Below are positions 9,101 through 39,707 of a DNA stretch of 39,939 nt, piece by piece. Below the pieces are notes generated by a model, which had not been told where the DNA came from, made no database searches, and worked only from the letters and a program-made list of their open reading frames with translations. This stretch comes from Pachysolen tannophilus NRRL Y-2460 (taxonomy: Eukaryota): positions 1,322,848-1,362,786 of the forward strand of contig KV454012.1 of NCBI GenBank assembly GCA_001661245.1, in the 5' to 3' direction. Position numbers and translations under genes: made by a program. Position 1 is the first letter of the stretch; each line of letters opens with the position of its first letter.

Positions 9101-10096
9101 AATGTTGCTCAGACTGCAGCTTTAGAAAGACAGCAGCAGCAGCAACAGCAGCAACAACAACAACAACTACTGCAACAGCAGCAACAACAAAATCAAAATC
9201 AAAATCAAAATCAACAGCAACAGCAACAACTACGCCAGGGAAGTTTATTGCTGAAAGTTCCTCCAAGTAGTTTAACACCTCAACTGTCACAAATTCAGAT
9301 GAATACGTTATCCACTCCTGCTGGATCTAACAATTTTGAAAATTTAAATGAAAGATTTATTTCGTCTCAGCAACAGTATCCTAATAGTACCAATCAAGTC
9401 AATAGTCCTGTTCCGCGGACAACCATCTCAAATCCATCTTTAGGAATGGAGAGCTATTACAAGAGTAGTAGCGCGTTAACGAATATTTTAGATGATTTTT
9501 ACAATAACGGTGGTCAGAATTATCAGTATAATATTGGAGGTCTGCAACCACATCAACAACAACAACCTCCAGGTAGCTCTGTCAGCAATATATTTGAGAA
9601 AAATTTCAGTAGTAGTGGTCTTTCTGAATCTAATACTGCTCCTTCTTCTTCTTTTTTCACCAATTATAATCCATTATCAGCGAACAGTGGTACAAGTTAT
9701 TTAGGTTTAGGAAGTACAAACGGTAGTAACGTTGGTAATAATAGTATGTCTTCTAATTTTTTCAATACTCAATCCCAATCCACCACGTACCTGCTTGATA
9801 AACAAACTCAGCAGCAACAGCAAACGTTAATGACACCACAACCACAATCACAATCACAACAACCGCTACCGCAACCACCACCACTGCTGCTGCTGCTGCT
9901 GATACTCACTGGTAGCGGGTATCTAAATAATTTACAAAATGCTTCTTCACTTGCATCGCCAAGAAGTCAACTTATGAATAATGATTCTAATACCGGTGAC
10001 CTATCAATTTCAAGTGCTTATCAGCATACAAAACAAGTTCCGAATACAAGCAGAGCTCAGAGTATTCATGTTGATGAATTTGAAAAGAGAAATTGA
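6164..10096 (+). CDS. VIR1: Probable virilizer/VIRMA homologue (Vir1/Ygl036w), scaffold of the mRNA m6A methyltransferase complex
   Basis: 1310-aa ORF with a Leu/Ile/Asn-rich helical-looking body and a Q/N/S-rich tail. It ends in NTSRAQSIHVDEF, matching the virilizer motif NTSRPPSMHVDDF as I recall it. It is adjacent to OCH1, and YGL036W is near YGL038C in S. cerevisiae. Confidence 0.7.
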   Translation: MSDKLASYSPGGSVGGSGNSANSNSANSSNNTNSIGMGVGIGIGISNDNRGYSGCDKDEKKFEKWMLHNQREQEQEQEQARARARTRAQEHEQVREHERVHEHEYIGLRLGVSSNYSDTLKTLIESINTSVLLEDNLSMDKGAEELVCLFMTNDGIFEELSEKLYKDETVNNGDLLEIISILIIVGSSHKINAIMNPSTLENITITQLKTVLIHYNQVLHIIQKQLFSRFSFLFNKFPISIITPLINVIDLLSRKFNYQNQNFLIQVLAVLISFHCHYNFLFFEISKILQNQFFWKILMQRINNGSKNYQQQYPAELGIISIYQNFKSYESNQKVKMIDLMGIVFPYDLTQLLLETMQGASTIETVFNQIINLNHNNNNTHNEGGIESSLASLLIFQNSNRLNQEIFGIYCMNHTNVLKRLQELSSLSSLPLSSSSSTSTSATATATATNSLSSSPSASDAAAAAAAAASPSSSQSSSPSSSSSSPMPLSPLSPLSPLLKISDLACELSNILCIYISESLLSIQFLSSRDKFLTFFVNQFLNLNYQKLWIGNYSTELFPDFIFKIIFEIVDHNLKLNLLEESNLVKLLELGLNIIDNNLTSTSSFIEIHNKFHDLGSSLSLPALLSYLNYILNYNLTRNSDLFSDGCPNYLKIPISFEEVFSFDSIPPISKSNFIFENNFEKEYENNNFVKMLEKKELQKTKNTDCILRCIYTLCKIMRNLLEDLTKTNKNTNFLNYGIESVNESLPASDYNLKFKFLTKFIDLNVDSLLSSMITMENCNQKMNQQDQKGNISSIIVLTKKQIISSITHIVEIHKDFGLYCILKNLNNISLGDLRFIKFNCCLLDELIYNDQISENVIKDLIFGNDLCYHAYLQFLNLFDDPNLETFNKLHDLISKEEVKEGHEEGNFRSKEMVYINLNNFLPLLKMDQFQKTVSNQHSFVDQSYNCVSHNANSKNVDGNSNMKNNVYASMNINSIPNFNVAQTAALERQQQQQQQQQQQQLLQQQQQQNQNQNQNQQQQQQLRQGSLLLKVPPSSLTPQLSQIQMNTLSTPAGSNNFENLNERFISSQQQYPNSTNQVNSPVPRTTISNPSLGMESYYKSSSALTNILDDFYNNGGQNYQYNIGGLQPHQQQQPPGSSVSNIFEKNFSSSGLSESNTAPSSSFFTNYNPLSANSGTSYLGLGSTNGSNVGNNSMSSNFFNTQSQSTTYLLDKQTQQQQQTLMTPQPQSQSQQPLPQPPPLLLLLLILTGSGYLNNLQNASSLASPRSQLMNNDSNTGDLSISSAYQHTKQVPNTSRAQSIHVDEFEKRN

Positions 10097-10154
10097 TGAA
10101 TCAATTAAACTTTCAAAATAACAATAAGTTTTTACGCATTTTACGATGGTTAAG

Positions 10155-10185
<31 letters not shown>

Positions 10186-10819
10186 GTTTAACTGTCAATG
10201 ATTACGAGTAGATAAAATTTTTATTTATTATGTTTGATCTCTTTTGTTGTCTTTATTTTAATTTATTATGATCATTTAAGGATGATTAAATATTAGAATT
10301 TGGTACTTTTTATTTTTTCTCTTTTTATACTTTTATACTTTTTTTTTTCTTTTTTTCTTTTTATTACTCTTTTATTGAAACTTGGTTAGATTGAAATAAA
10401 TTAAAGAAATATATCTTTAAGCACAACTATCATCTTACCATTGATATCGTTGTTGTTGGTTATGAATTCTTTTGAACAAATTATTTTAAAATTCTTAAAA
10501 TTTTTAAAAAATAAAAAATAAAAATAAAAAGGATTACGTAATCTATTTTTCCAAAAGTTCTTGATGTATTTTGTGCACAGCTTCTTCTTATACAGGGTTT
10601 ATTAGTTTGAATTTTTAATTGAAAAGAACAAAATATTGTTTTATATCTAGATAGAAGGGGACTAGGCTGGAAAGTGTGATTTAAACACATAGCTTCATTT
10701 AGTCACTATCGTCTTTGAGACTCTTTCTTTTTTTTTTTTTTTTTTTTTTATTTTTATTTTTTTATTTCTATTTTTTTTTTTTATATTTTATTTCACTGGA
10801 TGAAATATTGGGTTTAATT

Positions 10820-12028
10820 ATGTCCCATTTTTTAAAGCCCTCTCATGATTACCCGTATAAGCTTAACGATTCATCCTCTGGAATTAGGAAGATTCTTCAT
10901 AATAAAAAATTTAAGTTGATTACATTTATAATAGCTGTTTTTTATATTCTGAGTTCTTTAATTGCACATCACAGGAATTTTTCATTAAAGGAATTAAACG
11001 CCAAATCGATTAAGGCTAAAACTGAATTAGAGAAACATACAAATTTTAAAAAAATTGGTTCAAATTTGATTGGTATACATAAATTACCTCCCGATACAAC
11101 TTTAAGAGAAAAGTTAACTTTCCATTTCCCCTATGAACCAGAGAAGTCAATTCCTAAAAAAATATGGCAAACTTGGAAAGTAGAAGAAGATGATGAAACG
11201 TTTCCTAAAAATTTTAGAGCATTTGTTAATTCTTGGAAAACGAAAAATCCAACTTTTAACCTGATGGTGATACCAGATTCACTGTGTGATGAATTAATTA
11301 AACATTTATATGAAACTGTTCCAGAAGTATTGAAAGCTTATCAATTAATGCCAAAGAAAATTTTAAAAGCTGATTTTTTTAGGTATTTAATATTATATGC
11401 AAGAGGAGGAACTTATTCCGATATCGATACTGTTAGTTTGAAACCAGTTTCTACTTGGTTAACTTTTAATGAAACGATTGAAGGTGTTACAAATAATCCA
11501 GGGTTAGTTGTTGGTATTGAAGCTGATCCTGATAGACCAGATTGGGCTGAATGGTATGCAAGAAGAATTCAATTTTGTCAATGGACAATACAGGCAAAAG
11601 CAGGACATCCAATGTTAAGAGAATTAATACTGAAAATAACTGAAATCACACATTCAAAGTTGGAAAGGGGAATGTTGAATAAGATTGAAGGAAAAGATGC
11701 TGGTGGTGATATAATGAATTGGACAGGACCGGGTATATTCACCGATACTGTCTTTGAATATTTGAACAATATATACAGTAACGGTATCGCAACTGTTGAG
11801 CCTCAAATAGATTGGAAATATTTTACAGGAATGAAGATTCCTAAAATCGTAGATGATGTGTTGGTTTTCCCAATTACATGTTTTTCTCCGGGAGTTGGTC
11901 AAATGGGATCAAAATCAATTTCAGATGAATTGGCATACGTTAGACATATGTTTGAAGGAAGCTGGAAACCAGAAGACGAACGAAACATTGGTAAGAAGAA
12001 GACAAAGAAAGAGAAAAAGAAAAATTAA
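10820..12028 (+). CDS. OCH1: Golgi initiating alpha-1,6-mannosyltransferase (GT32)
   Basis: First ATG is at 10820; the ORF-track start at 10715 is a TTG within T-rich sequence. Type II membrane anchor, IPKKIWQTWK, KADFFRYLILYARGGTYSDID (DxD) and GIEADPDRPDWAEWYARRIQFCQWTIQAK. Confidence 0.93.
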   Translation: MSHFLKPSHDYPYKLNDSSSGIRKILHNKKFKLITFIIAVFYILSSLIAHHRNFSLKELNAKSIKAKTELEKHTNFKKIGSNLIGIHKLPPDTTLREKLTFHFPYEPEKSIPKKIWQTWKVEEDDETFPKNFRAFVNSWKTKNPTFNLMVIPDSLCDELIKHLYETVPEVLKAYQLMPKKILKADFFRYLILYARGGTYSDIDTVSLKPVSTWLTFNETIEGVTNNPGLVVGIEADPDRPDWAEWYARRIQFCQWTIQAKAGHPMLRELILKITEITHSKLERGMLNKIEGKDAGGDIMNWTGPGIFTDTVFEYLNNIYSNGIATVEPQIDWKYFTGMKIPKIVDDVLVFPITCFSPGVGQMGSKSISDELAYVRHMFEGSWKPEDERNIGKKKTKKEKKKN

Positions 12029-12445
12029 CTTGAACTAAAATTTGTTTTCATATACCCTATGTTTTGTATTTTTTTATGTTTTTTATTTTTTTTTTTTTTT
12101 TTTATTATTATTTTTATTATTTAACATTACATTTTTCACTTTTTAGAAAAGTATTGTCATCTTCAAAAGTTCAATAAAATTTAGAAATTCTAGTTTTGAA
12201 TTTGATTTGTGAGCTTTTCTTTTAATTCAATTATGATATTAATATTATCATTGAATTTATTAACATACATATATAATACAAAATCAAAGATCATTATTTT
12301 CATTTGTAATGAATTAAGATCCAAAGATAAACTTCAAAAAGAATCTAAATAAGATGAAAAACAAAGTAAATAAAACAATTTTGATAAAAAGATGCTTCGA
12401 CACCTGAACGCCATGCAAACTTAAAAAAAAAAAGAAATAAACAAA

Positions 12446-14596
12446 TCACAAATGTATAGTTAGCAAATCATTGACAGAAAATTGCTTATTACAGGAAGGA
12501 CATCTTCTTAATCTGGCAGCTAATCTTTCATGAGCACATTCATTACAAAATACGTGTCCACAAACTTTGATTGCAGTGTTTTTCCAATTCTTGGAACATA
12601 CAGGACATTTAGCAATTTTTCTAAATATTTCAATATTTTTCTCTTCTTCTTCAAGCATAAATTTGTTTGCATTTGCAGATTTATATTTATCTAATAATGT
12701 TTCTATTGATTTATATCTAGATTGCAACTTCACCAATTCACTTTCTTTCTGTTTTCTCAAATTCAATTCTAGCTCTTGTTTTGATAATGAAGATGTTGAT
12801 GTTGCAACCAATTTTTCATTGTTTCTTTTCAATAATTCATAAGAATTTGATAACTCCCTTAAGCTTTTCTTTAATTCTCTGTTTTCATTAGATAAATTGT
12901 TTTCTAAATATTTTAAATCTTTTAAATTTGATTCCAAAGTTTCACATTTAAGCAAATAATTTTTTTCAACTTCTTTCAAAGTTCCAATCAATTCTGACTG
13001 TTTATTTAGAGTTGATTTCAATGCCTTATTTTCTTGCGATAAAGAATCCTTTACTCTCATAGCTGAAAAATATTTTTGATCTGCTTTATTTTTTTCTACT
13101 GTCAATTTACTAATTACAGAATCCGAATCAGCATATTGCCCTAATTTTTTAACGGATATGTCATGAACATTTTTAAAAGCATTTTCCAATTCTTTTAATT
13201 CGTTTAGAAGAGCCAGGTTCTGTTTTAATAATGATTCTCTATCTGCATTTTGATCAACTTCTGAAAATTCTTTTACGGTTACTCCAGATTCTAAATTTTC
13301 AATTTTCTTTTTCTGAACATCGATTAAAGATTTAAATTCTTCTATTAATTCTTGGTTTGGTTGAGCTGATTTCAATATTGTGTTTTTAGAAATCAAATCA
13401 TCCCTTGCAGTTCTTATTCTAACCAAATCCTGCTCCGATTTTTTCAAATTTTTCCTCAACTCTTCGTATTCTTTTTTTAGTAATTCTTCCACAGAATTTC
13501 TAAATTTACTTCTTTCAGTTTCTAAATCACTGATTCTCGCAAAAAGTTGTTTATCTTTTAGTTTATAATCATCAAGCTCTTCTTTTAAAATATCCTTTGA
13601 TTTTAACAGATTTTGGAAAGGAATACAATTATGTAAATCCACTTCAGTTAAATTTTGTAATTTTAACGATGCTTCCATTGAATCTTTTTTCAACTTTGCT
13701 GAAAGTGATAATTCCTCATTTAATTTCCGTGTTAAATCTTGATTTAAAGCTTTTAATTCTTCAAATTCAACTGTTAATTTTTCTAATTCTTCTTTATTAA
13801 CTAAATCATCCGTATTTTCCTTTTTTAAATCTGGTGTACTTGATTCAATTTTCACCTGCTGAGAAGTAGCATCTTTACCATTTATGCGATCTGAATCGTG
13901 ACTTAGTTCTTTATCATCATCGTTATTAATTTCACTTATTCTTTTCAAAGTTTTAGAATTTGCTCTTTCAGATTCTTTTGTTAAAAGATAAATTTCATCT
14001 TGAAAATTTCTTAAATTTTCTTCCAATAAATTTTTTGACCTTACAAGTGTATCATTTTCGGACTTTATTTCCATCAACTGATAATTCAAATCTTGTACTT
14101 TTGCATTCAAATCATCAGAATCAATATTAGCTGTAGCTGAAGTTGTTGTTGAATTTGAGCCATTATTTCCAATATCGTAGCGGCTCAAAAATTCCAACAA
14201 AGCATCCCGTCTTTTTTGTAATAATTCAAGCAATTCATCTCCATCATCTTCAGGAAGTCTAACCAATAATTTTTGATTTAATGCCGTTGTTGGTGATTCA
14301 TTGGAGCTAGATACTTTATTATTCAAATCATCTATAATTTGTTTATACCAACCATCCAAAACTGAAATTTTTTTTTGATTCAGCATGAATCTTGTCTTAT
14401 AATTTGTAAGTTCCATACTTAATAATTTACATTCTTTCTTATATTTTTTCATTTGCCTAAAAATCGCCTCCTTTTGAAAATAAACTACATCTTCTTGAGT
14501 TAATGGACCATCTTCACTAAGCGTATCCAACACACGTCTCTTGGAAATACCATTCAATTCCTCCCCAGCGGATCTCTTCTTCTCGTCATCAGTCAT
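12446..14596 (-). CDS. BRE1: E3 ubiquitin ligase for histone H2B
   Basis: N-terminal PLTQEDVVYFQKEAIFRQM, a long coiled coil, KNKADQKYFSAMR, and a C-terminal C3HC4 RING (CPVC...CGHVFCNEC...CPSC). Confidence 0.95.
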   Translation of the reverse strand: MTDDEKKRSAGEELNGISKRRVLDTLSEDGPLTQEDVVYFQKEAIFRQMKKYKKECKLLSMELTNYKTRFMLNQKKISVLDGWYKQIIDDLNNKVSSSNESPTTALNQKLLVRLPEDDGDELLELLQKRRDALLEFLSRYDIGNNGSNSTTTSATANIDSDDLNAKVQDLNYQLMEIKSENDTLVRSKNLLEENLRNFQDEIYLLTKESERANSKTLKRISEINNDDDKELSHDSDRINGKDATSQQVKIESSTPDLKKENTDDLVNKEELEKLTVEFEELKALNQDLTRKLNEELSLSAKLKKDSMEASLKLQNLTEVDLHNCIPFQNLLKSKDILKEELDDYKLKDKQLFARISDLETERSKFRNSVEELLKKEYEELRKNLKKSEQDLVRIRTARDDLISKNTILKSAQPNQELIEEFKSLIDVQKKKIENLESGVTVKEFSEVDQNADRESLLKQNLALLNELKELENAFKNVHDISVKKLGQYADSDSVISKLTVEKNKADQKYFSAMRVKDSLSQENKALKSTLNKQSELIGTLKEVEKNYLLKCETLESNLKDLKYLENNLSNENRELKKSLRELSNSYELLKRNNEKLVATSTSSLSKQELELNLRKQKESELVKLQSRYKSIETLLDKYKSANANKFMLEEEEKNIEIFRKIAKCPVCSKNWKNTAIKVCGHVFCNECAHERLAARLRRCPSCNKQFSVNDLLTIHL

Positions 14597-14794: not shown

Positions 14795-14902
14795 ANNNNN
14801 NNNNNNNNNNNNNNNNNNNNNNNNNNNNNNNNNNNNNNNNNNNNNNNNNNNNNNNNNNNNNNNNNNNNNNNNNNNNNNNNNNNNNNNNNNNNNNNNNNNN
14901 NN
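14795..14902. other. Assembly gap, probably false (overlapping contig ends)
   Basis: N run sitting between two near-identical ~400-bp copies. Confidence 0.95.
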
Positions 14903-16003: not shown

Positions 16004-19000
16004 TTAATAAGCATTGACCACTTTATTTGGTGACTCAAAAGTTAACAAAGGAATGATTTTTGATAATGAGCCAACTCTATCAGGACTATCTTGTAATTGA
16101 TTCTCAACAAAACCTTCAAATTCTTCCACGATTAGATTCCACTCATTAAGGGATTTACCAAGTAATCCCCAATTTCTTAAATTATCAAATTTATTTTCAC
16201 TATCGTAAAAAGTTAATCTTGAAGTTGTTGGATTTCTCTTTATATATATAAATTCATCCGAATCATCATCACATTCATCTTCATCGTGATCTGAGCTTAT
16301 ATCTGAATCAATAAATCCAAGACGGTGTTGGGCAGTTAATGAAGATCCATTAAATGTAAAACGTGGTAATCTTGGGAATTCTGGGAAATGATTAGCAGTA
16401 TCTTTAAAAAATTTAATCCTTCTGTTATTTACCATTGATAATCTAGATTGTATTGAATCTTCAGTGAATACCAATTGAAATTTGAACAAAGGCCTTTCTA
16501 AATCAGGTGCTCTTTTATCCAATTCTGGAGGAGGAGGAGTAGACCATATAGCCAGCAGTTGTTCGTCAACATCTTCCATCTTCTTTGAATCTAATGAATC
16601 TAAATCTGATAAAGTAATCAACTCATTTATAGAAGTAGATGACGATGGTGGTGAATTGCTCAAAGATACAACACTTGGACTTGAAGATCTTGAAGATATA
16701 GACAATAAGGAAAAAGATTTTGATAAATTTGATGGAGGTGTTAAACAATTGACATTTAATTTAACCAGTGATAATACATTTTGGGTTGGTTGGCGGGGTG
16801 TTTCCTCAGTTGATTCCTCTGGTAAAATCAATTTAGGTTTGATAATAACAGGAACTTTAACTAACTCACTATCATCAGTAGTTTCATCTTCTCCGGATTT
16901 ATTTTCCCTTTCCGGTGATGACGTTGAAGATTTTGTCGGACTACCTTCGGAATATTTATTACCATTACCATTACCATTACCCTCAGCACTCTTCGATGGG
17001 GTTTTCTTAAAAAACTTTAATGCTGATTCAATACCATTAACCAAAGTAGAAGCTGAACCATTTTTCTTTGTTAATTTCGTGGAACCTAACGATTTTTCAA
17101 CTATCGTAGATGAACTATAAATGGCATCATCAAAGATTTCAAATGAATGGATCTTACGAATTTGACCATTTCTATCACTAGAAATCACTGTTAATGGACT
17201 CATGACATCAATTGATGGCGCCATTAAGCTTTTGATATCCAGACATGATGAGTTATTACTATTATCAGTATTAAGTTGAGTTGAAACAATGATCATCTTT
17301 CTATTAACTAATGGCGATGATGAAGTCATATCTGGTAATTTGAAATATCCTTCCTCAGAATCAGTAACTAATTTACCAAGACATTCGTAAGATAACATTA
17401 ATCTGCTTTCTATCATTCTTCTGATATTATCTTGCTCAGAAACTGTACTATCAACAATTTCATCAAGGGCAAAACCGTTTAACCTCCAACAAACCAATCT
17501 TTGAAAATAACATCTAACTAGAGGTTGCCAATGACAAAAATACCTTTTCCAAACAGGAATAGATAAAAGCCAACAACTTATATTAAATCTAATACTTTCC
17601 TGTGGGTTTATAAACCATTTAGGTACTTCGCTTGATGATGTTGGAAATGGATAATTTGGAATAAGATCCCAAATATTAAAGATCATTGATAACGCTTTTA
17701 ATTCTGAATTAATATTTTCAGTAGTAAGCATATTTTGAACTGCGGATAACCAAAAATTCCAATCTATAGAAAGCATTAAAGTAACAGGTGATTTATATTC
17801 ATTTCTTTGACCAACATTAATCATAAATTCATAAGATATATCAAGAATAAATCCAGCAATATCATAATCATATGCACTTACATGCAATGCATAACATTGT
17901 AAGATTTGATCAAATAATTTTACTATTGTTGGAGCCAAAAGTACTTCATTCTCATCGTATGCATTATGTAAATAATCTCTAATAGTTTTAAAAATTTTAT
18001 TAATTGCAACTGGTAAGACTCCTTGAGATACTCCATTTTGAATATTACCATTATTACTATTTGATAAGAAACTTATATTATAATCTTTTTCCTTTTGTTG
18101 ATTTTTAATTTTTCTTTGAGAAGCACAATGATGAATTAATTCATAGAAATGATTTAAAATAATAAGAAAACCTGGAGAAGCAACAACAACATTCCAAGGT
18201 AAATGATTTAATTCAGTACTATTTGAACAATTTAAAACTATGAATTCTGAAAGAATATGCAAATAATGTCTCAAGAAAGAACAAAAAATATCACTATCAA
18301 ATGAACTCCATCTTTTAACCCATAATCCTCTAGGATCAGAAATTCCTGGTACAGGATGAGTTGGTGGGAAACAAGCATTTATATATTTTTTTTCAGATCT
18401 TGGTACATTTGACCTTCCACCATATCCAGCCAATGATTTAACTTCTTGTGGGAAAAAATGAACCATTTTAGAGCCAGATTCTTTTAATTTTTTACAAGAA
18501 TCAACATATCTTGGATTTTTGTAAAGATTATTTACCAAATTTTCAAGGGTAAATTGTTTGACACCTAATAAAAATAATAATGCATTTGCAACACCTGGTA
18601 AATGGAAAAAAGAATACGCAAAGACTTTACCTATAAAAGCTGATAATGATAATGATACTGATTTCAAATCTAATTTTTTAATACTATAATCCAAGGTTTC
18701 AGTTAACAAGTTTTTATATTGGGCATTATTTGGAACTAAATTCCATTCTTTCATTGATAAAATTCTTGAAATACATTCTAAATAAACAGCTCTATCTGAA
18801 GAAGAAATTGGATGAGTTTTTTCACGTAGGGAAGCCAATAAACTTTTCCACCAATGAGTCAAAATTTGAATACATGTAATAATCACAGATTTTGAATTCG
18901 GAAAATTTAAATGAACGTTATTATTATGAGTTCTTAAAAATGGAAGTAATGTTATTCTAAGAATATTTGTTTTCATTAAACAATTATGTTTACTATTAAA

Positions 19001-19528
19001 TTTGATTAAAGATTGATCTAATTTTTTGTATCCTTTTAAAATTTTTTTTGTATGGTCGTTTAATTTCGGAGAATGAGAATTCCCGGAATTTTTAATACCT
19101 GTCTTTGTTGTTATTGTTGATGATGTTGTTGTTGTGGTTGTAGTTGTTGTTGCTGGCAGCAGCAGCAGCAGCAGTTTTTCCTTTTTTAATTTATCCAAAG
19201 AAGAAGTAGAACAAGAAGATAATTGTTGTTGTTGTTTTTTTTTTGTCTCCTTTATACAAGTGCTTGAATCTTTTTCTGATATTATTTCGGGAGTTGATGA
19301 AAAATTTTTATGATTCAAATGCAAATTGGATATGATTGCCGAAGATTTTTTCATTAAAAAAGATGAGGATGAAGACACTGATGCTGATGCTGATGACGAT
19401 GACGGAGATGGCGATGAAGATGAAGACGAAGACGAAGAAAAAGTCTTGGCTTTCAAAGCCAACGTTCCAGCAAGTTGTGATGTCGACAATGATGATAAGG
19501 GCTCATGCTTCCCATTTGCACCCATCAT
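16004..19528 (-). CDS. AHK1: DUF1765/UPF0592 family protein, Ahk1 (Ydl073w)-like scaffold
   Basis: First ATG is at 19528. Motifs KTNILRITLLPFLR, GKVFAYSFFHLPGVA, IDWNFWL and FCHWQPLVRCYFQRLVCWR resemble DUF1765 as I recall it. It lies next to BRE1, as YDL073W lies next to YDL074C. Confidence 0.7.
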   Translation of the reverse strand: MMGANGKHEPLSSLSTSQLAGTLALKAKTFSSSSSSSSSPSPSSSSASASVSSSSSFLMKKSSAIISNLHLNHKNFSSTPEIISEKDSSTCIKETKKKQQQQLSSCSTSSLDKLKKEKLLLLLLPATTTTTTTTTSSTITTKTGIKNSGNSHSPKLNDHTKKILKGYKKLDQSLIKFNSKHNCLMKTNILRITLLPFLRTHNNNVHLNFPNSKSVIITCIQILTHWWKSLLASLREKTHPISSSDRAVYLECISRILSMKEWNLVPNNAQYKNLLTETLDYSIKKLDLKSVSLSLSAFIGKVFAYSFFHLPGVANALLFLLGVKQFTLENLVNNLYKNPRYVDSCKKLKESGSKMVHFFPQEVKSLAGYGGRSNVPRSEKKYINACFPPTHPVPGISDPRGLWVKRWSSFDSDIFCSFLRHYLHILSEFIVLNCSNSTELNHLPWNVVVASPGFLIILNHFYELIHHCASQRKIKNQQKEKDYNISFLSNSNNGNIQNGVSQGVLPVAINKIFKTIRDYLHNAYDENEVLLAPTIVKLFDQILQCYALHVSAYDYDIAGFILDISYEFMINVGQRNEYKSPVTLMLSIDWNFWLSAVQNMLTTENINSELKALSMIFNIWDLIPNYPFPTSSSEVPKWFINPQESIRFNISCWLLSIPVWKRYFCHWQPLVRCYFQRLVCWRLNGFALDEIVDSTVSEQDNIRRMIESRLMLSYECLGKLVTDSEEGYFKLPDMTSSSPLVNRKMIIVSTQLNTDNSNNSSCLDIKSLMAPSIDVMSPLTVISSDRNGQIRKIHSFEIFDDAIYSSSTIVEKSLGSTKLTKKNGSASTLVNGIESALKFFKKTPSKSAEGNGNGNGNKYSEGSPTKSSTSSPERENKSGEDETTDDSELVKVPVIIKPKLILPEESTEETPRQPTQNVLSLVKLNVNCLTPPSNLSKSFSLLSISSRSSSPSVVSLSNSPPSSSTSINELITLSDLDSLDSKKMEDVDEQLLAIWSTPPPPELDKRAPDLERPLFKFQLVFTEDSIQSRLSMVNNRRIKFFKDTANHFPEFPRLPRFTFNGSSLTAQHRLGFIDSDISSDHDEDECDDDSDEFIYIKRNPTTSRLTFYDSENKFDNLRNWGLLGKSLNEWNLIVEEFEGFVENQLQDSPDRVGSLSKIIPLLTFESPNKVVNAY

Positions 19529-20185
19529 ATGGATATATATATATATATATAAATATATATATATAATATCCAATCTATGATATTATATTTTTGTTTTTTT
19601 AAAGAAAAAAAAAGAGAGAAAAAAAAAAAGAAAGGGTTCAAATTTAAATCCTTTGTAGTAGTAATATTACGAGAAACTCAATTGATTATTTTCTCGTAAA
19701 ATCAAATGCACTTCCACGCACCGAAGATAATATTTTTCTTTTGGAAAAAAAAAAAATACAAAATTGAAACACGCAATTCAACTTAAATTAAATAGCAGAA
19801 TCCAGAGCAAAAAAAAAAGTTTTTAAAAATAAAATAAACAAAAACAAAAAAAAAAATTAAATGATTAAATGATTAAATGATTAAATGATAATGATACAAG
19901 TAACAAACAAATAACAGAATTAAAAAAAAAAAAAAAATTTATCTTTTTTTTTATTATTTATTTTGTTTCGTTTCCTTTGAGGAAATATATCTAGTTAAAT
20001 GTGGATTATCGATAAAGGGAGTGAAATGAAAAATTGAGAGAATAAATAGAAACAAATAACCAAAAACGAATGCTTAATTTTTATTTTATTTTTCTTTTTT
20101 TTTTTTTTCTTTTCAAATTGGAAAACACTCCCTAAAGAGAGTAAGTATATTTTAAATATACCAAAAAAAAAAAAANAAAAAATAA

Positions 20186-20563
20186 NNNNNNNNNNNNNNN
20201 NNNNNNNNNNNNNNNNNNNNNNNNNNNNNNNNNNNNNNNNNNNNNNNNNNNNNNNNNNNNNNNNNNNNNNNNNNNNNNNNNNNNNNNNNNNNNNNNNNNN
20301 NNNNNNNNNNNNNNNNNNNNNNNNNNNNNNNNNNNNNNNNNNNNNNNNNNNNNNNNNNNNNNNNNNNNNNNNNNNNNNNNNNNNNNNNNNNNNNNNNNNN
20401 NNNNNNNNNNNNNNNNNNNNNNNNNNNNNNNNNNNNNNNNNNNNNNNNNNNNNNNNNNNNNNNNNNNNNNNNNNNNNNNNNNNNNNNNNNNNNNNNNNNN
20501 NNNNNNNNNNNNNNNNNNNNNNNNNNNNNNNNNNNNNNNNNNNNNNNNNNNNNNNNNNNNNNN
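20186..20563. other. Assembly gap flanked by poly(A)
   Basis: N run bordered by A-rich homopolymers. Confidence 0.99.
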
Positions 20564-21274
20564 AAAAAACCAAAAAAAAAAAAAAAAAAAAAATAATAAT
20601 AATAAAAGCGAATGAATTAGTTTAACAGCGGTAAATCAATTTTCTTTAGCAAGACGATATAAGCTCTTTAATTTATTTTTGGATTTTTATTTTTAATTTT
20701 TATTTTCTCTCCCTTAGTCTTTAAACTATATTAATAAATAAATAAAAGATTATATATAAAATATATAAAAACCTTGAATTAAGCGCCCATGCGAGAAATA
20801 ATTCATTTCATAATACGAAATTAAAAGAGAAAGTATAGATTCTATAAATATAAAGTAAAATTGCTTAAAAAAAAAATCACTTTTTATTTATTTATTTTTT
20901 TTTTTTTTTGTGTGTATTTTTCATAGAAAGTTAAATTTTTTTTTTTTTTTTATATTTTCTGTTAAAAATGTTACATATATACTGTAAAATGTCTACGTAA
21001 TTTTATGTAATTTATGTAATTTATGTATGTATAAATTGTATAAATGGGGGAAACCTTATATAGTATTATAAACTTTTTAAAAGCTTAAAAAACTAAGCAT
21101 TAAAAAAACGAAATTTCCTCATTTGGAATGATAGTTTGTTTGTAAAAAGTAATTTTTTTTTTTTTTAAAACAAAAAAAAAATTTAAAATTTTAGAAACCT
21201 CGGTTACACAGCGGGAATTTAATTTTAATTTTTTTTTTAAAACAAAAAAACACATAAAAAAGAAAAACGTATAT

Positions 21275-21397
21275 TTAGAAACATTCTTTAATAATTTTAG
21301 AATTTGAAACTATAATACTCCATAATAAAAATTTTCCACAAGTAACACAATTACCGCATATAGGAATTAAATTTTTAAATTCCTTTTTATGGTTTAA

Positions 21398-21434
<37 letters not shown>

Positions 21435-26900: not shown

Positions 26901-27767
26901 TTATAAAATAGGAGGAACATCATCAGCCATTTCTCTATTCAATTTTGCCAGATTTGTTAATCTTTGTTTTTCTAATTCCATCAATGCAGCTTCATTTTCC
27001 ACTGGAGGTTCTTCTATTTGTTCCACATTTTTAACTTCTTCAATATAATGTTTTAACATGGATTCAATACCATTTTTTAAAGTAACAGCAGATGAACTAC
27101 AAGATCTACAAGCACCTCTTAATTTTAAAAAAACAGTGCCTGAATCTTCATCAAAACTAACAAAATCAATATCTCCACCATCATCTTGAATAGCAGGTCT
27201 AATTCTTGTAAAAATTAATTCTTTAATCATCAAGACAATTTCATCATCATCTTCATCAAATCCAGGATCTTCTATTTGTTCATGACCTTCAAGAAAAATT
27301 GGTGTACCAGAATTAAGAAATTCTGTTAATATTGCAAAAATTTCTGGTTTTAATAAACTCCAATCTTCTTCTATAGATTTTTCCACAGTAATAAAATCAG
27401 ATCCAAACATTACAGCTTTTATACCATCAATAGCAAATAATTTCATTGCTAATGGTGATTTATAAGCCTCTCTACCAGATAAAAATTCCAAAGTTTGATC
27501 ATTTTCTAAAATCTTTATCGATGGTAGAAATTTTAAAGCTGAATCATTAGGTGTTGTTTGAGTTTGAATAAATAAACTTCTCCTTGAATTAACTCCTCTT
27601 AAAGCTAGATTTAATGAATTCACACCACTCACACCACTTGCACCACTCGCACTACCAAAAACATTACCATTTATTATTAAATCTCTTTTAACCGCCATTA
27701 CATTTAATCCAAAACCTCTCATCACACCTCTCCTATAAAAAGTTGAAAACCCTCTTTGACTTATCAT
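26901..27767 (-). CDS. NFU1: Mitochondrial Fe-S cluster carrier, NifU-like
   Basis: First ATG is at 27767. Arg-rich presequence, LFIQTQTTPNDSALKFLP, RIRPAIQDDGGDI and GACRSCSSSAVTLKNGIE (CxxC). Confidence 0.95.
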   Translation of the reverse strand: MISQRGFSTFYRRGVMRGFGLNVMAVKRDLIINGNVFGSASGASGVSGVNSLNLALRGVNSRRSLFIQTQTTPNDSALKFLPSIKILENDQTLEFLSGREAYKSPLAMKLFAIDGIKAVMFGSDFITVEKSIEEDWSLLKPEIFAILTEFLNSGTPIFLEGHEQIEDPGFDEDDDEIVLMIKELIFTRIRPAIQDDGGDIDFVSFDEDSGTVFLKLRGACRSCSSSAVTLKNGIESMLKHYIEEVKNVEQIEEPPVENEAALMELEKQRLTNLAKLNREMADDVPPIL

Positions 27768-28226: not shown

Positions 28227-31200
28227 TCAAGATTTTCTGTTAAAATCTAAAGCTGTAATTTTTGATCTTTCACACATTTTTTGGAAAATACCTTCTTTGT
28301 TGAATAATACCCATGGAGTATTAAATTGTTGGACTTGACCTTTATCTAAGACTAAAATTCTATCATAATCAACAATAGTTTTCAATCTATGAGCAATACA
28401 TAAGATTGTACAAGAACTAAATTCTTGAACAATTGTTTTTTGAATTTTAGCATCTGTTTCATAATCAACTGATGAAGTAGCTTCATCTAAAATTAAAATT
28501 TTTGAATTTCTAACAACTGCTCTAGCTAATGCAATTAATTGTTTTTCACCAAGTGAAAAATTTGATCCATCATCTTCAACAACTTGATCCAAATGGAATT
28601 TATGCAATTGTGGATCTGTTAATGCTTGACATTTAACTTTTGATAATTCAGATTCTTCAATTAATCCACTTCTTCTTAATGCTCCCCATAATTCATCATC
28701 ATTATGTTTGTTAAAAGGATCAAGATTCTTCCTAATATTACCTCTAAATAAAACTGGATCTTGTGGAATAATGGAAAGTTTGGATCTTAAAGAATTTAAT
28801 CCAATCTTAGCAATATTAATACCATCAATATTAATTTCACCATTGGCCAATTCAGCTAATCTATATAATGCAGTCATTATTGAAGATTTACCAGCTCCTG
28901 TTCTACCACAAATACCAATTTTTTCACCAGCCTTGACACTAAAAGAAATATTATTCAAGACTAATGGTAATCCAGGTCTATAAGCTAAAGAAACATTTTT
29001 AAATTCAACAACTCCATGTTGTGGCCATGTTGGTGGTGGTGCTGTTTCAGGAATATCAAATGGAGCTTCACTAGGTAAATGGAATGCATAATAATCTAAT
29101 CTTTCAACAGAATTCATTTCATTCTCAACTTGTGTCATTGCTCTAATTAATAATGACAATTGACCAGCAATTTGCATAACATAAGAAACTAATAAACCTA
29201 CAGATGCAGCACTGATTTGGAATTGTCTAGTAACCGATAATAAAGCTATAATTAGGGCAAATGCAGAAGCAACCAAATCCAAATGAATACCTAACCATCT
29301 TTGATTAGAAAGTGAAATGAAATATGCTTCATTCATACGATTGATATATAGATTATTCTTTATTAAAAATCTGCTTTCTGCTTTAAACGATTTAATTGTA
29401 GTCATTCCTCCTAAAGTTTCATTGAAATTGTTATAGACAAAAGATCTCAGAAGTGCTTCCAATCTTTTAATCTCTCTTGAAGAAGCTTGATAGAAATTAG
29501 CAAATCCAATGAAAAGCAGAACCAAAAATGGAACAGCTATAGCAAACCAAGGTAAATAAATAATACAAAGAATAAGAACACCACAAACATTAGCAGTAGG
29601 ATATATGAACAATCTAAGTTGTTGCGAAATTTCATTATCCAATGCATCGGTGTCCTTGGTGAATCTATTCAAAATTCTACCAATAGGAGTAGTATCAAAA
29701 AATGACATTGGTGCATGCAATAAATTCGTGACTGCTGCAATATTTAATAATTTTGATGCCTTGTTAGTAATGAAAACAATCAAGGAAAATTCTGTGCTAA
29801 CAAATATAATGGTAAGGCAAGTGAACAGTACATAGAGTCCAATATAAAAACCAGAAGATCTCCCTGGAAATTTTTCCTCTGTCCAAAAGGATAACCAAGT
29901 ATTTGTAAATAATTGAAAAAAAGTTGCCAAAATCACAAAGAAAAAGAAAACAGGGGTCATTCCTGCTTTTAGAGCGCCTGAACCAGCCATAACATAGTTT
30001 TTGTAAATGCTAAAGCTAATACCGTTAATAGCTCTTTCTTCCTTTTGGATCAACTGTGCTTCTCCTGTTTTGGAAGTAAAATCTTTTCTACTTTCTTCAT
30101 CATCTTCATCATTATCATTCAATAATGATTTTTCTGTCATCTGTCTCTTTAACTCCTTATCTTCTTCATCATTCATTTCTTTCTGTTCTTCTTCAGTATT
30201 TTTTTCATCATTACTAAACTCCATCAAGTTCAAAAATGCTGCATTACTCTTTAATAGCTCATCAGGTGTCCCAATATCGACTGTACCATCTCCATTCAAG
30301 AATATAACTCTATCTGCAGAATTAATCATAGACAACTGGTGAGTAGCCAAGATTCTCGTTTTATCTTTTAAAAGACCCATAAAGCAATTATCCATAATAT
30401 GTTTACCAACTCTGGCATCTACAGCGCTCAAGACATCATCCAATAAGATGATATCATTAACAGCATAAACTGCCCTTGCCAAGTTAATTCTCGCTTTTTG
30501 ACCACCAGATAGAGTTATACCTCTCTCACCGATTTCGGTTCTATCACCAGCTGGTAATATATCCAAATCCGCATCCAAAGAGCATGCATATATTGTGTCT
30601 TTATATTTTTTTTCATCATATTCTGAGTCGAACAATATATTTTCTTTTACCGGAGCATTTTGAATCCATGGATAACCACATAACAACAAAGAACCATTTA
30701 TCTTTAGTTCTCCTTCTTCCTTATCCATAAATCCTGCAAGAGCGTTCAACAACGAAGATTTACCACTTCCAATAATACCTGTGATAATAATAAATTCTCC
30801 TTGTTTGATATCAAAATCCAAATGTTTCAAGCCTGGAAATTTTGTATGTTTAACTGAGAGTGAAGATGACTGATCAAAGTTCCCGGAAAGCTGTTTATTT
30901 ATATTGTTTAATCTTTCTTCTTCTCTTTCAATTTGCTTCTCTTTTTCTTCTTCTTCTTTTGATGGAGATACGCTTTCATCAATTTGTTCAAATGTTTTCC
31001 ATTGGAAAGTTGCATTTCTCACTGAAATAGCCAATTTTTTTTCTATTAATTCATCTACATCAACATAACTTGATTCTCTATCTTTTGGGTCATCTTCACC
31101 ACTTTGTAATAAACCTCTTACTCTATCAATACCCACCAAAGCGTCGGATCCAGTAGCCAACAGAAGGGGTAACATCATAATTTGTTGGGATAAGACGTTG

Positions 31201-32492
31201 AACAAACTTAACGAAGCAAAAATTTGTCCTGCACTTCTATTCTTATCGACTGCATACATAACTAAGAAAGAAACCATTGAAGAAATTTGAGGCAAACAAA
31301 CAGCGTAAGCAGTAAGGAAATTTCTCAAAATTTGTAATTTAAAAATATTATACATTTCTGAAGTTCTCACATCAGCAATTGTTTCTTTATAAGATGGTTC
31401 CCAAGAATAATACTTGATAATTCTTACATTATTTAACAATTCTTTCATGTAGTTAATTCTACTATCAGTAAACTTGGTTATCTTCTTTCTGTAAGAAAAC
31501 AATTTCTTTGTAGCAAGTGCAATAATTATTGTTGAGATAATGAAAATACCAATACCTGCCAATGAAGAAACACCTATATTAACGATTAATAAGGCAATTG
31601 AAATTGCAACTGGTATTGGAAATACAATCAGAATAGGTTGAAACCCAATACCTAAATCGACTCTTGATAAATCTGTACCCAACATTGAAGTTATCTTACT
31701 TGCTGGATAATTATGTCTTCCTTTTGCATTTAATTTGAAAGATTTTTCCAACATGGCTTTAGTTAAAGTAGCCTTTGATTTCGCACCAACTTGAGTAGAA
31801 AGATTGAAAAAATGATTAATTAAAATACCTGAAACTGAAACTAACAGAGAACACCCTATAGCATAACCTACACCATGTCCTATATTAGTTTTATAACCCA
31901 AGACTCTATCCTCCACAAAGTCAATTAAGGCTTTTGATAAAAGAGGGTTTAAAGTAAAACCAACATCAGCTAGTGCAACAAATACAATAGAAAGTGAATA
32001 TTCCCATTTAAAAGTATCAAATAAAGCCCACACTAAAGAATATCTTGGATATTCGAATTCAAATTCGTTATCCTCATTTGGATCAAACGTTCCATTTTTC
32101 TTTTTTTCTTCTAATAATTTTAAATGTGCTTCTCTTGCCTTTTGAGTTCTCTTTGCTAATCTTTTTTCAAAAATTGCATAATATTCTTCAATTTTTAAAT
32201 CACCATCTAAATACCATAAATCTTCTTGTTGTAAAGTTCTCTTATATCCTGTATTCATAAGCGGCATTAACCACCAGAAAAAAATTTTATAAATAATATT
32301 TGCTTTACGGAAGGGGTATGGTTTCCTTTCATCAGGTGTTGGAATTGGAGGTACCTTTTTAGAAAATAAAAAAGAAAACAACCTTCTCTGTTTCATATAT
32401 TCAACAGGTTGAGCTTCCTCAATCATAGCATGAGACTTGCCATTTTTTTCCTTTTCAAACACTTGAATAGAAGAACTTTCATCTTCAGCCAT
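28227..32492 (-). CDS. YOR1: ABCC/MRP-type plasma-membrane ABC transporter
   Basis: TMD-NBD-TMD-NBD order. GIIGSGKSS, NGSLLLCGYPWIQNA (Yor1-type), LSGGQKARINLARAVY, GRTGAGKSS, HKFHLDQVVEDDGSNFSLGE and LDEATSSVD. Confidence 0.92.
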   Translation of the reverse strand: MAEDESSSIQVFEKEKNGKSHAMIEEAQPVEYMKQRRLFSFLFSKKVPPIPTPDERKPYPFRKANIIYKIFFWWLMPLMNTGYKRTLQQEDLWYLDGDLKIEEYYAIFEKRLAKRTQKAREAHLKLLEEKKKNGTFDPNEDNEFEFEYPRYSLVWALFDTFKWEYSLSIVFVALADVGFTLNPLLSKALIDFVEDRVLGYKTNIGHGVGYAIGCSLLVSVSGILINHFFNLSTQVGAKSKATLTKAMLEKSFKLNAKGRHNYPASKITSMLGTDLSRVDLGIGFQPILIVFPIPVAISIALLIVNIGVSSLAGIGIFIISTIIIALATKKLFSYRKKITKFTDSRINYMKELLNNVRIIKYYSWEPSYKETIADVRTSEMYNIFKLQILRNFLTAYAVCLPQISSMVSFLVMYAVDKNRSAGQIFASLSLFNVLSQQIMMLPLLLATGSDALVGIDRVRGLLQSGEDDPKDRESSYVDVDELIEKKLAISVRNATFQWKTFEQIDESVSPSKEEEEKEKQIEREEERLNNINKQLSGNFDQSSSLSVKHTKFPGLKHLDFDIKQGEFIIITGIIGSGKSSLLNALAGFMDKEEGELKINGSLLLCGYPWIQNAPVKENILFDSEYDEKKYKDTIYACSLDADLDILPAGDRTEIGERGITLSGGQKARINLARAVYAVNDIILLDDVLSAVDARVGKHIMDNCFMGLLKDKTRILATHQLSMINSADRVIFLNGDGTVDIGTPDELLKSNAAFLNLMEFSNDEKNTEEEQKEMNDEEDKELKRQMTEKSLLNDNDEDDEESRKDFTSKTGEAQLIQKEERAINGISFSIYKNYVMAGSGALKAGMTPVFFFFVILATFFQLFTNTWLSFWTEEKFPGRSSGFYIGLYVLFTCLTIIFVSTEFSLIVFITNKASKLLNIAAVTNLLHAPMSFFDTTPIGRILNRFTKDTDALDNEISQQLRLFIYPTANVCGVLILCIIYLPWFAIAVPFLVLLFIGFANFYQASSREIKRLEALLRSFVYNNFNETLGGMTTIKSFKAESRFLIKNNLYINRMNEAYFISLSNQRWLGIHLDLVASAFALIIALLSVTRQFQISAASVGLLVSYVMQIAGQLSLLIRAMTQVENEMNSVERLDYYAFHLPSEAPFDIPETAPPPTWPQHGVVEFKNVSLAYRPGLPLVLNNISFSVKAGEKIGICGRTGAGKSSIMTALYRLAELANGEINIDGINIAKIGLNSLRSKLSIIPQDPVLFRGNIRKNLDPFNKHNDDELWGALRRSGLIEESELSKVKCQALTDPQLHKFHLDQVVEDDGSNFSLGEKQLIALARAVVRNSKILILDEATSSVDYETDAKIQKTIVQEFSSCTILCIAHRLKTIVDYDRILVLDKGQVQQFNTPWVLFNKEGIFQKMCERSKITALDFNRKS

Positions 32493-34202: not shown

Positions 34203-35897
34203 ATGTTGTTTAGGTCCCTCAGTACGACATTAGCTCTGGCTATACTTTCATTTACTTCAACTTTAACCACAGTTCATGCTGAAGATTTACCAGCTATTGA
34301 AATTGTTGGTAACAAGTTTTTCTTTTCAAATAACGGATCTCAGTTTTATATTAGAGGAGTTGCTTACCAATCAGATGTTACCAGTACTTCAACTTCAAGT
34401 TTCACTGATCCATTAGCTGATGCGGATACTTGTAAAAGAGATATTCCATATTTACAACAAATAAACACAAATGTTATTAGGGTATATGCTGTTAACAGTT
34501 CTTTAGACCATTCTGAATGTATGGAACTGTTAAATGATGCTGGAATATACGTTATTGCCGATTTATCTGAACCTACCCTTGCTATTGATAGTAGTGATCC
34601 AACATGGACTTTGGATTTATATAATAGATATACATCTGTTGTTGATATGTTTGCTGAATATAGTAACGTCTTGGGTTTCTTTGCAGGTAATGAAGTTATT
34701 GTAAACACAACATCATCTGATGCTGCCCCATTTGTTAAAGCTGCTATTAGAGATATGAAACAATACATGGAAGATCAAGGTTATAGAGCTATTCCTGTCG
34801 GTTACTCTGCAAATGATGATTCAGATACTAGAGTTTCAAGTGCTGATTATTTTGCCTGTGGTGATTCTGATGTACATGCTGATTTCTATGGTATTAATAT
34901 GTATGAATGGTGTGGTGATTCTACATTTTCTGAATCTGGTTATGAACTGAGAACTGAAGAATTTTCAAATTTAACAATTCCTGTCTTTTTCAGTGAATAT
35001 GGTTGTAATACTGTTCAACCAAGAACTTTTACTGAAATTGCAACTTTATTTTCAAGTGAAATGACAGATGTTTGGTCAGGTGGTATTGTTTATATGTATT
35101 TCGAAGAAACTAATGATTATGGTTTAGTTACTATTGAATCAGATGGTGATGTTTCAACACTTACTGATTTTGATTATTATTCATCAGAAATTAATGATAT
35201 TTCACCAACATCTGCGACCAACACATCAGTTTCTACTGCAACAAGTGATTTTACATGTCCAACAACAGATTCATATTGGATAGCAAATACTGCACTTCCA
35301 CCAACTCCAAGTGAAGATGTTTGTGAATGTATGTATTATGCATTACAATGTGTTGTTGATGATAGTGTTAGTTCAACAGATTATTCTGAATTATATTCAT
35401 ATGTTTGTGCTGAAGTTACTTCATGTGATGGTATTACTGCTAATGGTACTTCAGGTAGTTATGGTGCATATTCATTCTGTTCAGAAAAGGAAAAATTATC
35501 CTTTGTCTTAAACTTATATTATCTTGAAAATGATGAAGATGAAAGTGCATGTTCATTTTCAGGTTCTGCATCATTGAATACTGCTGCCACCACATATTCA
35601 GTTTGTTCAGCAGTTTTCTCTGAAGCTGGAACATTAGGTACTGGATCTGTTACAGCAACTGTAACTGCTGGAAGTCTTCCATCAGATAGTACAACTGATG
35701 ATTCTACTGATCTGAGTTCAGATGATACATCATCTTCATCATCATCATCATCATCATCTTCATCGTCTTCATCATCCAGCACAGCTTCATCCACCAGCAC
35801 AAGTGCAAGTTCAAAGACAATATCATCATCAGAATTCACAATGACTTTGTTATTAGCCACATTTGTTCTTATTGGTACCTACTTCATCTTTGAGTAA
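34203..35897 (+). CDS. GAS1: GPI-anchored beta-1,3-glucanosyltransferase (GH72 plus X8/CBM43), Gas1/Phr family, copy A
   Basis: Signal peptide, [12 protein letters not shown], catalytic AGNEV and FSEYGC, Cys-rich X8 domain, Ser-rich linker and hydrophobic GPI tail. Confidence 0.9.
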
Positions 35898-37400: not shown

Positions 37401-37447
37401 TGCATTAGAATGCATCTAAGGTGCATAATGAATGCATAATATTGCAT
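37401..37447. promoter_or_regulatory. Five phased TGCAT motifs (candidate APSES-factor sites)
   Basis: TGCAT at 37401, 37411, 37422, 37433 and 37443. The pattern is directly visible; function is inferred. Confidence 0.4.
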
Positions 37448-38117
37448 AAACTAGTTTTTTTTGGCTTTTTGGCTTTTTGGCTTTTTTTCTTTTTTTCAAT
37501 AATGTTTCATTTCCTTTTTACTCCAATGAATTCCAGTTAATGGATCTTCTCTTTTGTGAATCAAAATTTCGTGTTTAGAAGCTGGGCTGTTACTGTTTTT
37601 ATTTACCATTCACTTCTCCTTCTTTCTTTTTTTTTTATTTTACTTTTTTTTTTTAAGTTAACGGTGTTGTTTTCATTATTTACCCTTTTTCTTTTTCTTT
37701 TTTTTTTAAACTCATTCTCTTTCTCAGCGATTAAAATTAATCTGCTAATTCTATTATAGCCCACTGCTATATATATATATTTCAATTCCTCGCTTCAAGT
37801 TAATTTTTATTTTTTATTTTTAACTAGATTTTTTTCTTTTTTGTTTTTTTCGAGTTGTGGTTTTTTTTTTTGTTTTGAATCAAGAGTTTTCATTCGCTTT
37901 AGTTTTAGCACATTAAAACACTCGTCAATTAATTAAATTTGTCTTTTTCTTTTTCTTTTTTTTTTTTATTTTCCCCAGTCTTTCTTTATATCTATATTTT
38001 TTATATATTTTTTTTTTTTTTTTAATAATTTTTTCATTTTTCAAATAAAAAGAAGAAAGAAAACCAAAAAAAAACTTTACTGAAATATATATATTTACTT
38101 TCTTTTTTTAAGAGAAA

Positions 38118-39707
38118 ATGTTGTTTAAATCACTTTTTTATTCTGCGATTTCGTTATTTGCGTTATCTACAAAAGTTTATGCAGATGATTTACCAACAAT
38201 TGAGGTTGGTGGTAATAAGTTTTTCTTTTCAAATAATGGATCCCAATTTTATATTAAAGGTATAGCTTATCAAGCAGATGTTTCCAATTCATCAGATTCA
38301 AGTTTTACTGATCCTTTAGCTGATGCAGATTCATGTAGGAGAGATATTCCTTATTTACAAGAGTTGTATACAAATGTTATTAGAGTTTATGCTGTTAATG
38401 TTTCATTGGATCATACTGAATGTATGGAACTGTTTAATGATGCAGGTATTTATGTTCTTGCTGATTTAGCTGAACCTTCTGTTTCTATTGATACTACAGA
38501 TCCAGAATGGACTTTGACTCTTTATGAAAGATATGCTTCTGTTGTTGATCTGTTTGCCAATTATTCAAATGTCTTGGGTTTCTTTGCTGGTAATGAAGTT
38601 ATTACAAACTCAACCACATCAGATGCTGCTCCATTTGTTAAAGCTGCTATTAGAGATACAAAAGAATATATGTCAAATTCGGGTTATAGAGCTATTCCAG
38701 TTGGTTATGCAGCAAATGATGATTCAGATACAAGAGTTTATAGTGCTGATTATTTTGCATGTGGTGATTCTGATGAAAGAGCAGATTTCTATGGTATTAA
38801 TATGTATGAATGGTGTGGTAATTCAACATTTGCTGAATCTGGTTATGAACTGAGAACTGAAGAATTTTCAAATTTAACAATTCCTGTTTTCTTTTCAGAA
38901 TATGGTTGTAATACTGTTCAACCAAGAACTTTTACTGAAGTTGCTGTTTTATATTCTGATGAAATGACAGATGTTTGGTCAGGTGGTATTGTTTATATGT
39001 ATTTTGAAGAAACTAATGATTATGGTTTAGTTACTATTGAATCAGATGGTGATGTTTCAACTCTTGAAGATTTCAATTATTTAAAATCTGAATTAGCTGA
39101 TATTTCTCCAACATCAGCAACTTACTCAGATGTCACTGCTACTGCATCTGCTTTATCTTGTCCAGGAACTGATACTTATTGGTTAGCTTCCACTGATTTA
39201 CCTCCAACACCAGAAGAAGAAGAATGTACTTGTATTTATGATGCAATGTCATGTGTTCTTAGTGATAGTGTTTCTTCATCAGATTATGCAGACTTATTTT
39301 CTTATGTTTGTGCTTTAATTGATTGTACTGCAATTGAAGCAAATGGTACATCAGGTGTTTATGGTAATTATTCTTATTGTACATCAGAAGAACAATTATC
39401 TTATGCTTTGAACTTATATTATGATGATAATGATGAATCATCAAGTGCTTGTGATTTTAGTAGTTCTGCAACTTTGAAATCTGCTTCAAGTGGTACTTGT
39501 TCTGCTTCTTATAGTGCTGGACTTACTGCTTCAAGTAGTGGAAGCTCGGATTCTTCCGGCTCCAGTTCTTCATCTTCATCATCATCATCATCATCTTCGA
39601 GTTCTTTAGGTTCAATTGTCAAACCATCAAAGAGTGCCTCGGAATTATTTGTTCTAACTTTCTTTATTACTTTTATTGTAGGTGGAGTATCATACTTAGT
39701 CATCTAA
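38118..39707 (+). CDS. GAS1: GPI-anchored beta-1,3-glucanosyltransferase (GH72 plus X8/CBM43), tandem paralogue, copy B
   Basis: Same architecture and catalytic motifs (AGNEV, FSEYGC) as copy A, with long identical peptide blocks. Confidence 0.9.

Follow-up and report, generated by a model that had tools for sequence, protein, structure and literature searches.

In the budding yeast Pachysolen tannophilus the codon CUG is translated as alanine and not, as in the standard code, as leucine, and this nuclear code has its own NCBI translation table (table 26, labelled 'Pachysolen tannophilus nuclei: CTG=A'). The reassignment has been published together with proteomic data that, in the section of the article cited here, give 97.2% alanine at 907 CUG positions and led its authors to judge CUG no more ambiguous than AUG (PMC4937558). 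According to the sections cited, the CUG-Ala clade has been extended to Nakazawaea and Peterozyma (PMC5951914, PMC11182611) and is now an order, Alaninales (PMC11182611). The CUG-Ala code is already known (Mühlhausen 2016; Krassowski 2018), and what follows adds nothing new to it biologically. We describe here the use of CTG in a 39,939-base stretch of AT-rich DNA (the window; G+C 15-36% per 2-kb bin), for which an earlier note, made from the sequence, had claimed that CUG appears to encode alanine between positions 9884 and 38852.

Among the features that we compared, no difference was found between the window and the Pachysolen code. In both, CTG avoids conserved leucine columns and is fitted best by alanine, and in both CTG lies mostly at weakly conserved sites (for Pachysolen, as stated in parts of PMC4986446 and PMC4937558). 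The CUG-Ser1 code of Candida and its relatives (table 12) is similar in that the same sense codon has been reassigned, in a neighbouring yeast lineage, and in that CTG shuns conserved leucine columns; it differs in the amino acid, serine, which the window rejects by 10-25 nats (units of natural-log likelihood), with a serine majority in 0 of 16 columns. Ascoidea and Saccharomycopsis, with their CUG-Ser2 code and stochastic serine/leucine decoding, represent another case in which budding yeasts reassigned CUG independently, as described in the cited portions of PMC5951914 and PMC6041473; they too differ from the window, in which no serine signal is seen. The window very probably comes from the nuclear genome of a CUG-Ala-clade budding yeast, in which CUG would be read as alanine according to table 26 at all 72 of its CTG codons.

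These 72 codons are spread over 11 long open reading frames (ORFs), each with a standard ATG-to-stop structure, and make up 0.8% of 9,027 codons; the other leucine codons occur 479 (TTA), 214 (TTG), 116 (CTT), 29 (CTA) and 5 (CTC) times. The range given in the earlier note is indeed bounded by CTG at both ends, with position 9884 starting a run of six CTG codons and positions 38850-38852 forming codon 245 of a GAS1-like gene. To avoid bias in the homologue searches we translated the ORFs with X in place of each CTG, and we aligned five of the proteins (YOR1, OCH1, BRE1 and the two GAS1-like paralogues, GAS-A and GAS-B) with 81-120 homologues each. For YOR1, OCH1 and the GAS proteins these were the 119-120 homologues listed, and for BRE1 they were the 81 near-full-length sequences among 90 with an E-value up to 1e-30. 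The five genes contain 20 CTG codons, of which four were removed (GAS-A 12 and 504, with occupancy below 70%, and GAS-B 105 and 245, as paralogous duplicates), leaving 16 independent columns. Fifty of the 72 CTG codons lie outside any alignment, mostly in low-complexity sequence (the 1,310-amino-acid ORF, the DUF1765 ORF, NFU1 and most of the RRM protein).

CTG in the window is clearly unlike an ordinary leucine codon, and its columns depart from those of leucine codons beyond chance. Columns with at least 80% leucine were found for 0 of 16 CTG codons, 124 of 349 other leucine codons (TTA, TTG, CTT, CTC and CTA) and 0 of 218 GCN codons; at a threshold of at least 50% leucine, the counts were 2/16, 204/349 and 2/218. 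For at least 50% alanine, the corresponding figures were 3/16, 1/349 and 111/218, and serine reached at least 50% in none of the 16 CTG columns. CTG thus did not fall mostly at conserved leucine or serine positions, the pattern that the earlier note had named as contrary to its claim. In the first 13 columns, the mean leucine fraction was 0.135 for CTG as compared with 0.622 for the other leucine codons. The log likelihood of alanine minus that of leucine over the same 13 columns was +5.5, a value reached by 0 of 100,000 draws from leucine-codon columns (mean -33).

Alanine is the best single reading of CTG. In a Codetta-type likelihood analysis, in which log column probabilities are summed with pseudocounts of 0.5, 2 or 5, alanine came first over the 16 CTG columns at all three settings. 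Leucine was second (7.1, 4.0 and 1.9 nats behind, respectively), and serine trailed by 25.2, 16.3 and 10.3 nats. As a control of the method, the 50 further codons represented by five or more columns were each assigned their standard amino acid. When 16 columns were drawn at random, the expected residue was best in 20,000 of 20,000 draws for leucine codons, 19,968 of 20,000 for alanine codons and 19,999 of 20,000 for serine codons. The claim that CUG encodes alanine is therefore borne out in that alanine fits best, the pattern is unlike that of other leucine codons and serine is rejected; taken from the window alone, the preference for alanine over leucine is moderate.

Individual columns vary widely in what they say (see the table). 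All five sites that the earlier note had put forward are in-frame CTG codons in the sequence contexts it gave: CME[CTG]LND at GAS-A 109, CME[CTG]FND at GAS-B 105, LA[CTG]AIL at GAS-A 12 (position 34236), LPL[CTG]LATG at YOR1 444 and LRELI[CTG]KIT at OCH1 271. The homologue strings that it had quoted had a mixed fate. The Saccharomyces cerevisiae Gas1 string CMKALND was recovered (P0289, P0314). The string LRELIAKIT exists, in the OCH1 of Candida maltosa (P0202), and C. albicans OCH1, to which it had been attributed, is absent among the named matches listed. At the YOR1 444 site, LPMALASGAD is found in Yor1 of both C. albicans and C. dubliniensis; the S. cerevisiae Yor1 cited for comparison is not among the 120 matches listed. 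The signal-peptide comparison at GAS-A codon 12 is uninformative, since 119 of the 120 homologues are gapped at this column.

Public copies of three window proteins (P0004, P0124 and P0364) read alanine at 13 of 13 CTG sites, comprising 6/6 in YOR1, 4/4 in OCH1 and 3/3 in BRE1, so the record has already been translated with NCBI table 26; a public copy of GAS-A is not among the 120 matches listed. Alignments to solved structures touch a few additional codons. Codon 348 of the RRM protein falls in helix 1 of an RRM, where leucine occurs in 0 and alanine in 1 of 13 aligned RRM segments, and codon 375 lies within an unaligned insertion. Two distinct solved SLX1 chains have a polar, non-leucine residue opposite SLX1 codon 219, in a gappy stretch, and S. 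cerevisiae Bre1 has aspartate opposite BRE1 codon 461. PDR5 codon 200 sits at a ragged, poorly aligned N-terminal start and is uninformative. A scan of the 39,939 bases with ARAGORN returned 0 tRNA genes.

Several observations weigh against a reading of CTG as alanine. The sites chosen in the earlier note are a favourable subset: only 3 of the 16 columns have an alanine majority, two have a leucine majority (YOR1 288 and BRE1 330) and OCH1 44 has a leucine plurality. CTG columns are much poorer in alanine than GCN columns, and none of 100,000 draws from alanine-codon columns (13 columns, mean +30) gave a likelihood difference as low as that of CTG; conservation at CTG sites is much lower than at ordinary alanine sites. 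The margin of alanine over leucine is moderate, falling to 1.9 nats at the heaviest pseudocount, and coverage is partial, with 20 of the 72 CTG codons in family alignments. Named relatives from the Pichiaceae carry leucine, leucine, leucine and methionine at GAS 109, and three named Pichiaceae relatives carry valine, isoleucine and isoleucine at OCH1 271. These hydrophobic residues leave YOR1 444 as the sole column that is decisive by itself.

The standard code, in which CUG would be leucine and the alanine-like columns would be chance matches at variable sites, draws on some of the same observations: leucine is the second-best residue, two columns have a leucine majority, and the Pichiaceae residues at GAS 109 and OCH1 271 are leucine, methionine, valine or isoleucine. 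We consider this explanation highly unlikely, since more than a third of the columns of other leucine codons, but no CTG column, reach 80% leucine, and since sets of 16 true leucine-codon columns, unlike the CTG set, always decode as leucine. It is further contradicted by YOR1 444, where 118 of 119 homologues have alanine and none has leucine, by several CTG codons whose columns are polar and contain few leucines or none (OCH1 148, GAS 249, YOR1 1015 and codon 348 of the RRM protein) and by the alanine in the public copies. Reading CUG as serine, as in Candida (CUG-Ser1) or in Ascoidea and Saccharomycopsis (CUG-Ser2), would agree with the CUG-Ser1 origin of the named homologues that score best for YOR1 and OCH1, and with the neighbours of CTG, which are about as non-hydrophobic as those of serine codons (Mann-Whitney p = 0.25). 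The likelihoods described above place serine far behind alanine, however, and serine accounts for 1 residue against 118 alanines at YOR1 444 and for 4 against 94 at OCH1 271. The window YOR1 also falls outside the core Ser1 group in a tree, and the public copies carry alanine, not serine. A serine code for this window is accordingly the least credible of the alternatives, with next to no chance of being correct.

Dual decoding, in which CUG would be mostly alanine with a functional leucine share, by analogy with the stochastic serine/leucine decoding of Ascoidea asiatica, might account for the position of CTG columns between leucine-codon and alanine-codon columns and for leucine-majority columns being commoner for CTG than for GCN. 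The Pachysolen proteomics quoted in the opening paragraph (the cited section of PMC4937558) speaks against such a share, and the intermediate pattern may have simpler causes in young CUG codons, variable sites and the single mutation that separates CTG from TTG and CTN. We therefore regard dual decoding as very improbable. The over-representation of leucine-majority columns among CTG codons (YOR1 288 and BRE1 330, as compared with 2 of 218 for GCN) could likewise be attributed to a functional minority decoding of CUG as leucine or to relic CUG-Leu codons that survived the reassignment; taken together, these two options retain a small chance.

Decoding of CUG as alanine, the reading that we favour, can be set within a sequence of events drawn from the literature. 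The ancestral tRNA-Leu(CAG) would have been lost while CUG usage fell, and CUG would then have been captured by a tRNA-Ala whose anticodon had mutated to CAG. The capturing tRNA, the defining molecular feature of the code, would retain G3:U70 and A73, which mark it for alanine, and would lack a long variable arm. In the cited parts of the respective articles, Pachysolen CUG codons are held to postdate the loss of tRNA-Leu(CAG) and the capture by tRNA-Ala (PMC4937558), are reported as absent at highly conserved leucine and serine positions (PMC4986446), and are reported to coincide with those of other yeasts at few positions, if any (PMC4986446, PMC4937558). If the CUG codons of the window similarly arose after the capture, mostly at weakly conserved sites, this would explain why their columns are only partly dominated by alanine. 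The dominance of leucine, methionine or glutamine in several columns may reflect that a single base change links CTG to TTG and CTN (leucine), ATG (methionine), CAG (glutamine) and GTG (valine) codons.

The best named homologues of the YOR1, OCH1 and GAS proteins are all from budding yeasts, and identity over aligned columns is at most 64% for all homologues except the window proteins' own public copies. An 18-row YOR1 tree, with no named sequence from the Ala clade, shows the window protein as a deep, isolated branch, separate from the core CUG-Ser1 group of nine rows (support 100/99), from the three rows for Pichiaceae (the Leu2 group; 100/99) and from the Phaffomycetaceae and Saccharomycopsis (the Leu1/Ser2 group; 99/96). 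This isolated branch would be compatible with a lineage of its own, for example the Ala clade; its attachment in the single-gene tree is poorly supported (62/85), with no clear sister group. The absence of a congener among the homologues, together with the very AT-rich DNA, makes the monotypic genus Pachysolen, whose G+C content is probably about 30%, the probable source rather than Nakazawaea or Peterozyma. The best BRE1 homologue (P0365) is 46% identical to the window protein and has leucine opposite two of the three BRE1 CTG codons, 330 and 461. Should P0365 belong to the Ala clade and its genes have been predicted under the standard code, these leucines could themselves be CTG codons.

An alignment-free test of sequence context used the 10 neighbours on either side of 56 CTG sites, in which adjacent CTG codons counted as one. 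The neighbours were less hydrophobic for CTG (mean 0.294) than for leucine codons (0.353, p = 0.0016) and for alanine codons (0.338, p = 0.024). The test has low power, as alanine and leucine contexts hardly differ (p = 0.07), and it does not discriminate alanine from serine.

Exact 18-base (CTG)6 runs occur in three genes, always in frame, and together contribute 18 of the 72 CTG codons in the window. The run at 9884-9901 reads AAAAAA by table 26 and LLLLLL by the standard code. Shifted by one base, a (CTG)6 microsatellite becomes a run of GCT, and under a code with CUG as alanine it would thus encode alanine in two of three frames.

Pfam names nine of the 11 ORFs, a tenth matches DUF1765 only and the eleventh is without a family. 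In the protein of this last ORF (6164-10096) the N-terminal half is non-repetitive and the C-terminal half is rich in glutamine, asparagine and serine. GAS-A and GAS-B are tandem genes of one strand, and their products match at 369 of 564 aligned positions (65% identity). Both carry CTG at the homologous codon pairs 109/105 and 249/245, and GAS-A has methionine opposite GAS-B codon 145. The SLX1 gene contains an (ATT)12 run (21398-21433) that the coding strand reads as twelve consecutive asparagines. The 2-kb bin 20001-22000 is extremely AT-rich (14.9% G+C), around a 378-base gap of N (20186-20563). Further gaps lie at 5838-6070 (233 bases) and 14796-14902 (107 bases), and with four single N the total is 722; all are between ORFs, which indicates a scaffolded draft assembly. 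The YOR1 stretch is contained in five sequencing-run entries from two studies, of which one may be the source; no RNA run is listed among them, and reads say nothing about how a codon is decoded.

Table. Open reading frames, (CTG)6 runs and aligned CTG codons of the window; residue counts are those of the homologues opposite each codon.
Feature	Position	Strand	Description
PDR5/CDR1-like ABC transporter ORF	3-4217	-	Pfam; runs off window end; 1 CTG (amino acid 200)
ORF, 1,310 amino acids	6164-10096	+	no Pfam family; 18 CTG
OCH1-like alpha-1,6-mannosyltransferase ORF	10820-12028	+	4 CTG (amino acids 44, 148, 155, 271)
BRE1 E3 ubiquitin ligase ORF	12446-14596	-	3 CTG (amino acids 72, 330, 461)
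DUF1765 protein ORF	16004-19528	-	10 CTG
SLX1 endonuclease subunit ORF	21275-22174	-	1 CTG (amino acid 219)
RRM-protein ORF	23503-26232	+	four RRM domains; 21 CTG
NFU1 iron-sulfur scaffold ORF	26901-27767	-	1 CTG (amino acid 273; C-terminal tail, outside both Pfam domains)
YOR1-like ABCC transporter ORF	28227-32492	-	6 CTG (amino acids 216, 288, 444, 889, 992, 1015)
GAS1-like beta-1,3-glucanosyltransferase, paralogue A (GAS-A)	34203-35897	+	4 CTG (amino acids 12, 109, 249, 504)
GAS1-like paralogue B (GAS-B)	38118-39707	+	3 CTG (amino acids 105, 145, 245)
(CTG)6 run	9884-9901	+	in frame, 1,310-amino-acid ORF; Pro/Gln-rich low-complexity tail
(CTG)6 run	19157-19174	- (sense strand)	in frame, DUF1765 ORF; poly-Thr tract follows
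(CTG)6 run	24988-25005	+	in frame, RRM-protein ORF; low-complexity linker
YOR1 codon 444	31161-31163	-	Ala majority: A 118/119, S 1, L 0; strongest single column
OCH1 codon 271	11630-11632	+	Ala majority: A 94/119, S 4, L 1
GAS-A codon 109	34527-34529	+	Ala majority but mixed: A 69, L 34, M 10 of 120
GAS-B codon 105	38430-38432	+	homologous to GAS-A codon 109
YOR1 codon 288	31629-31631	-	Leu majority: L 72/119, A 10
BRE1 codon 330	13607-13609	-	Leu majority: L 53/81, A 4
OCH1 codon 44			Leu plurality: L 36/110
YOR1 codon 889			other residue dominant: M 110
YOR1 codon 1015			other residue dominant: Q 101; L 3
OCH1 codon 148			other residue dominant: H 99, Y 13, no L
GAS codon 249			other residue dominant: D 77, A 17; L outside the seven commonest residues
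YOR1 codon 992			other residue dominant: F 60, A 14
YOR1 216, OCH1 155, GAS-B 145, BRE1 72, BRE1 461			mixed, no dominant residue

A sense-codon reassignment can thus be spotted unaided from about 40 kb of DNA, yet such a window alone gives moderate statistical support only. The CUG-Ala code was published in 2016 and has its own NCBI table, and the public proteins of this record already use it. For the yeast concerned, translating the window with the standard code would put leucine in place of alanine at 72 positions in 11 proteins and would turn three six-residue poly-alanine runs into poly-leucine.

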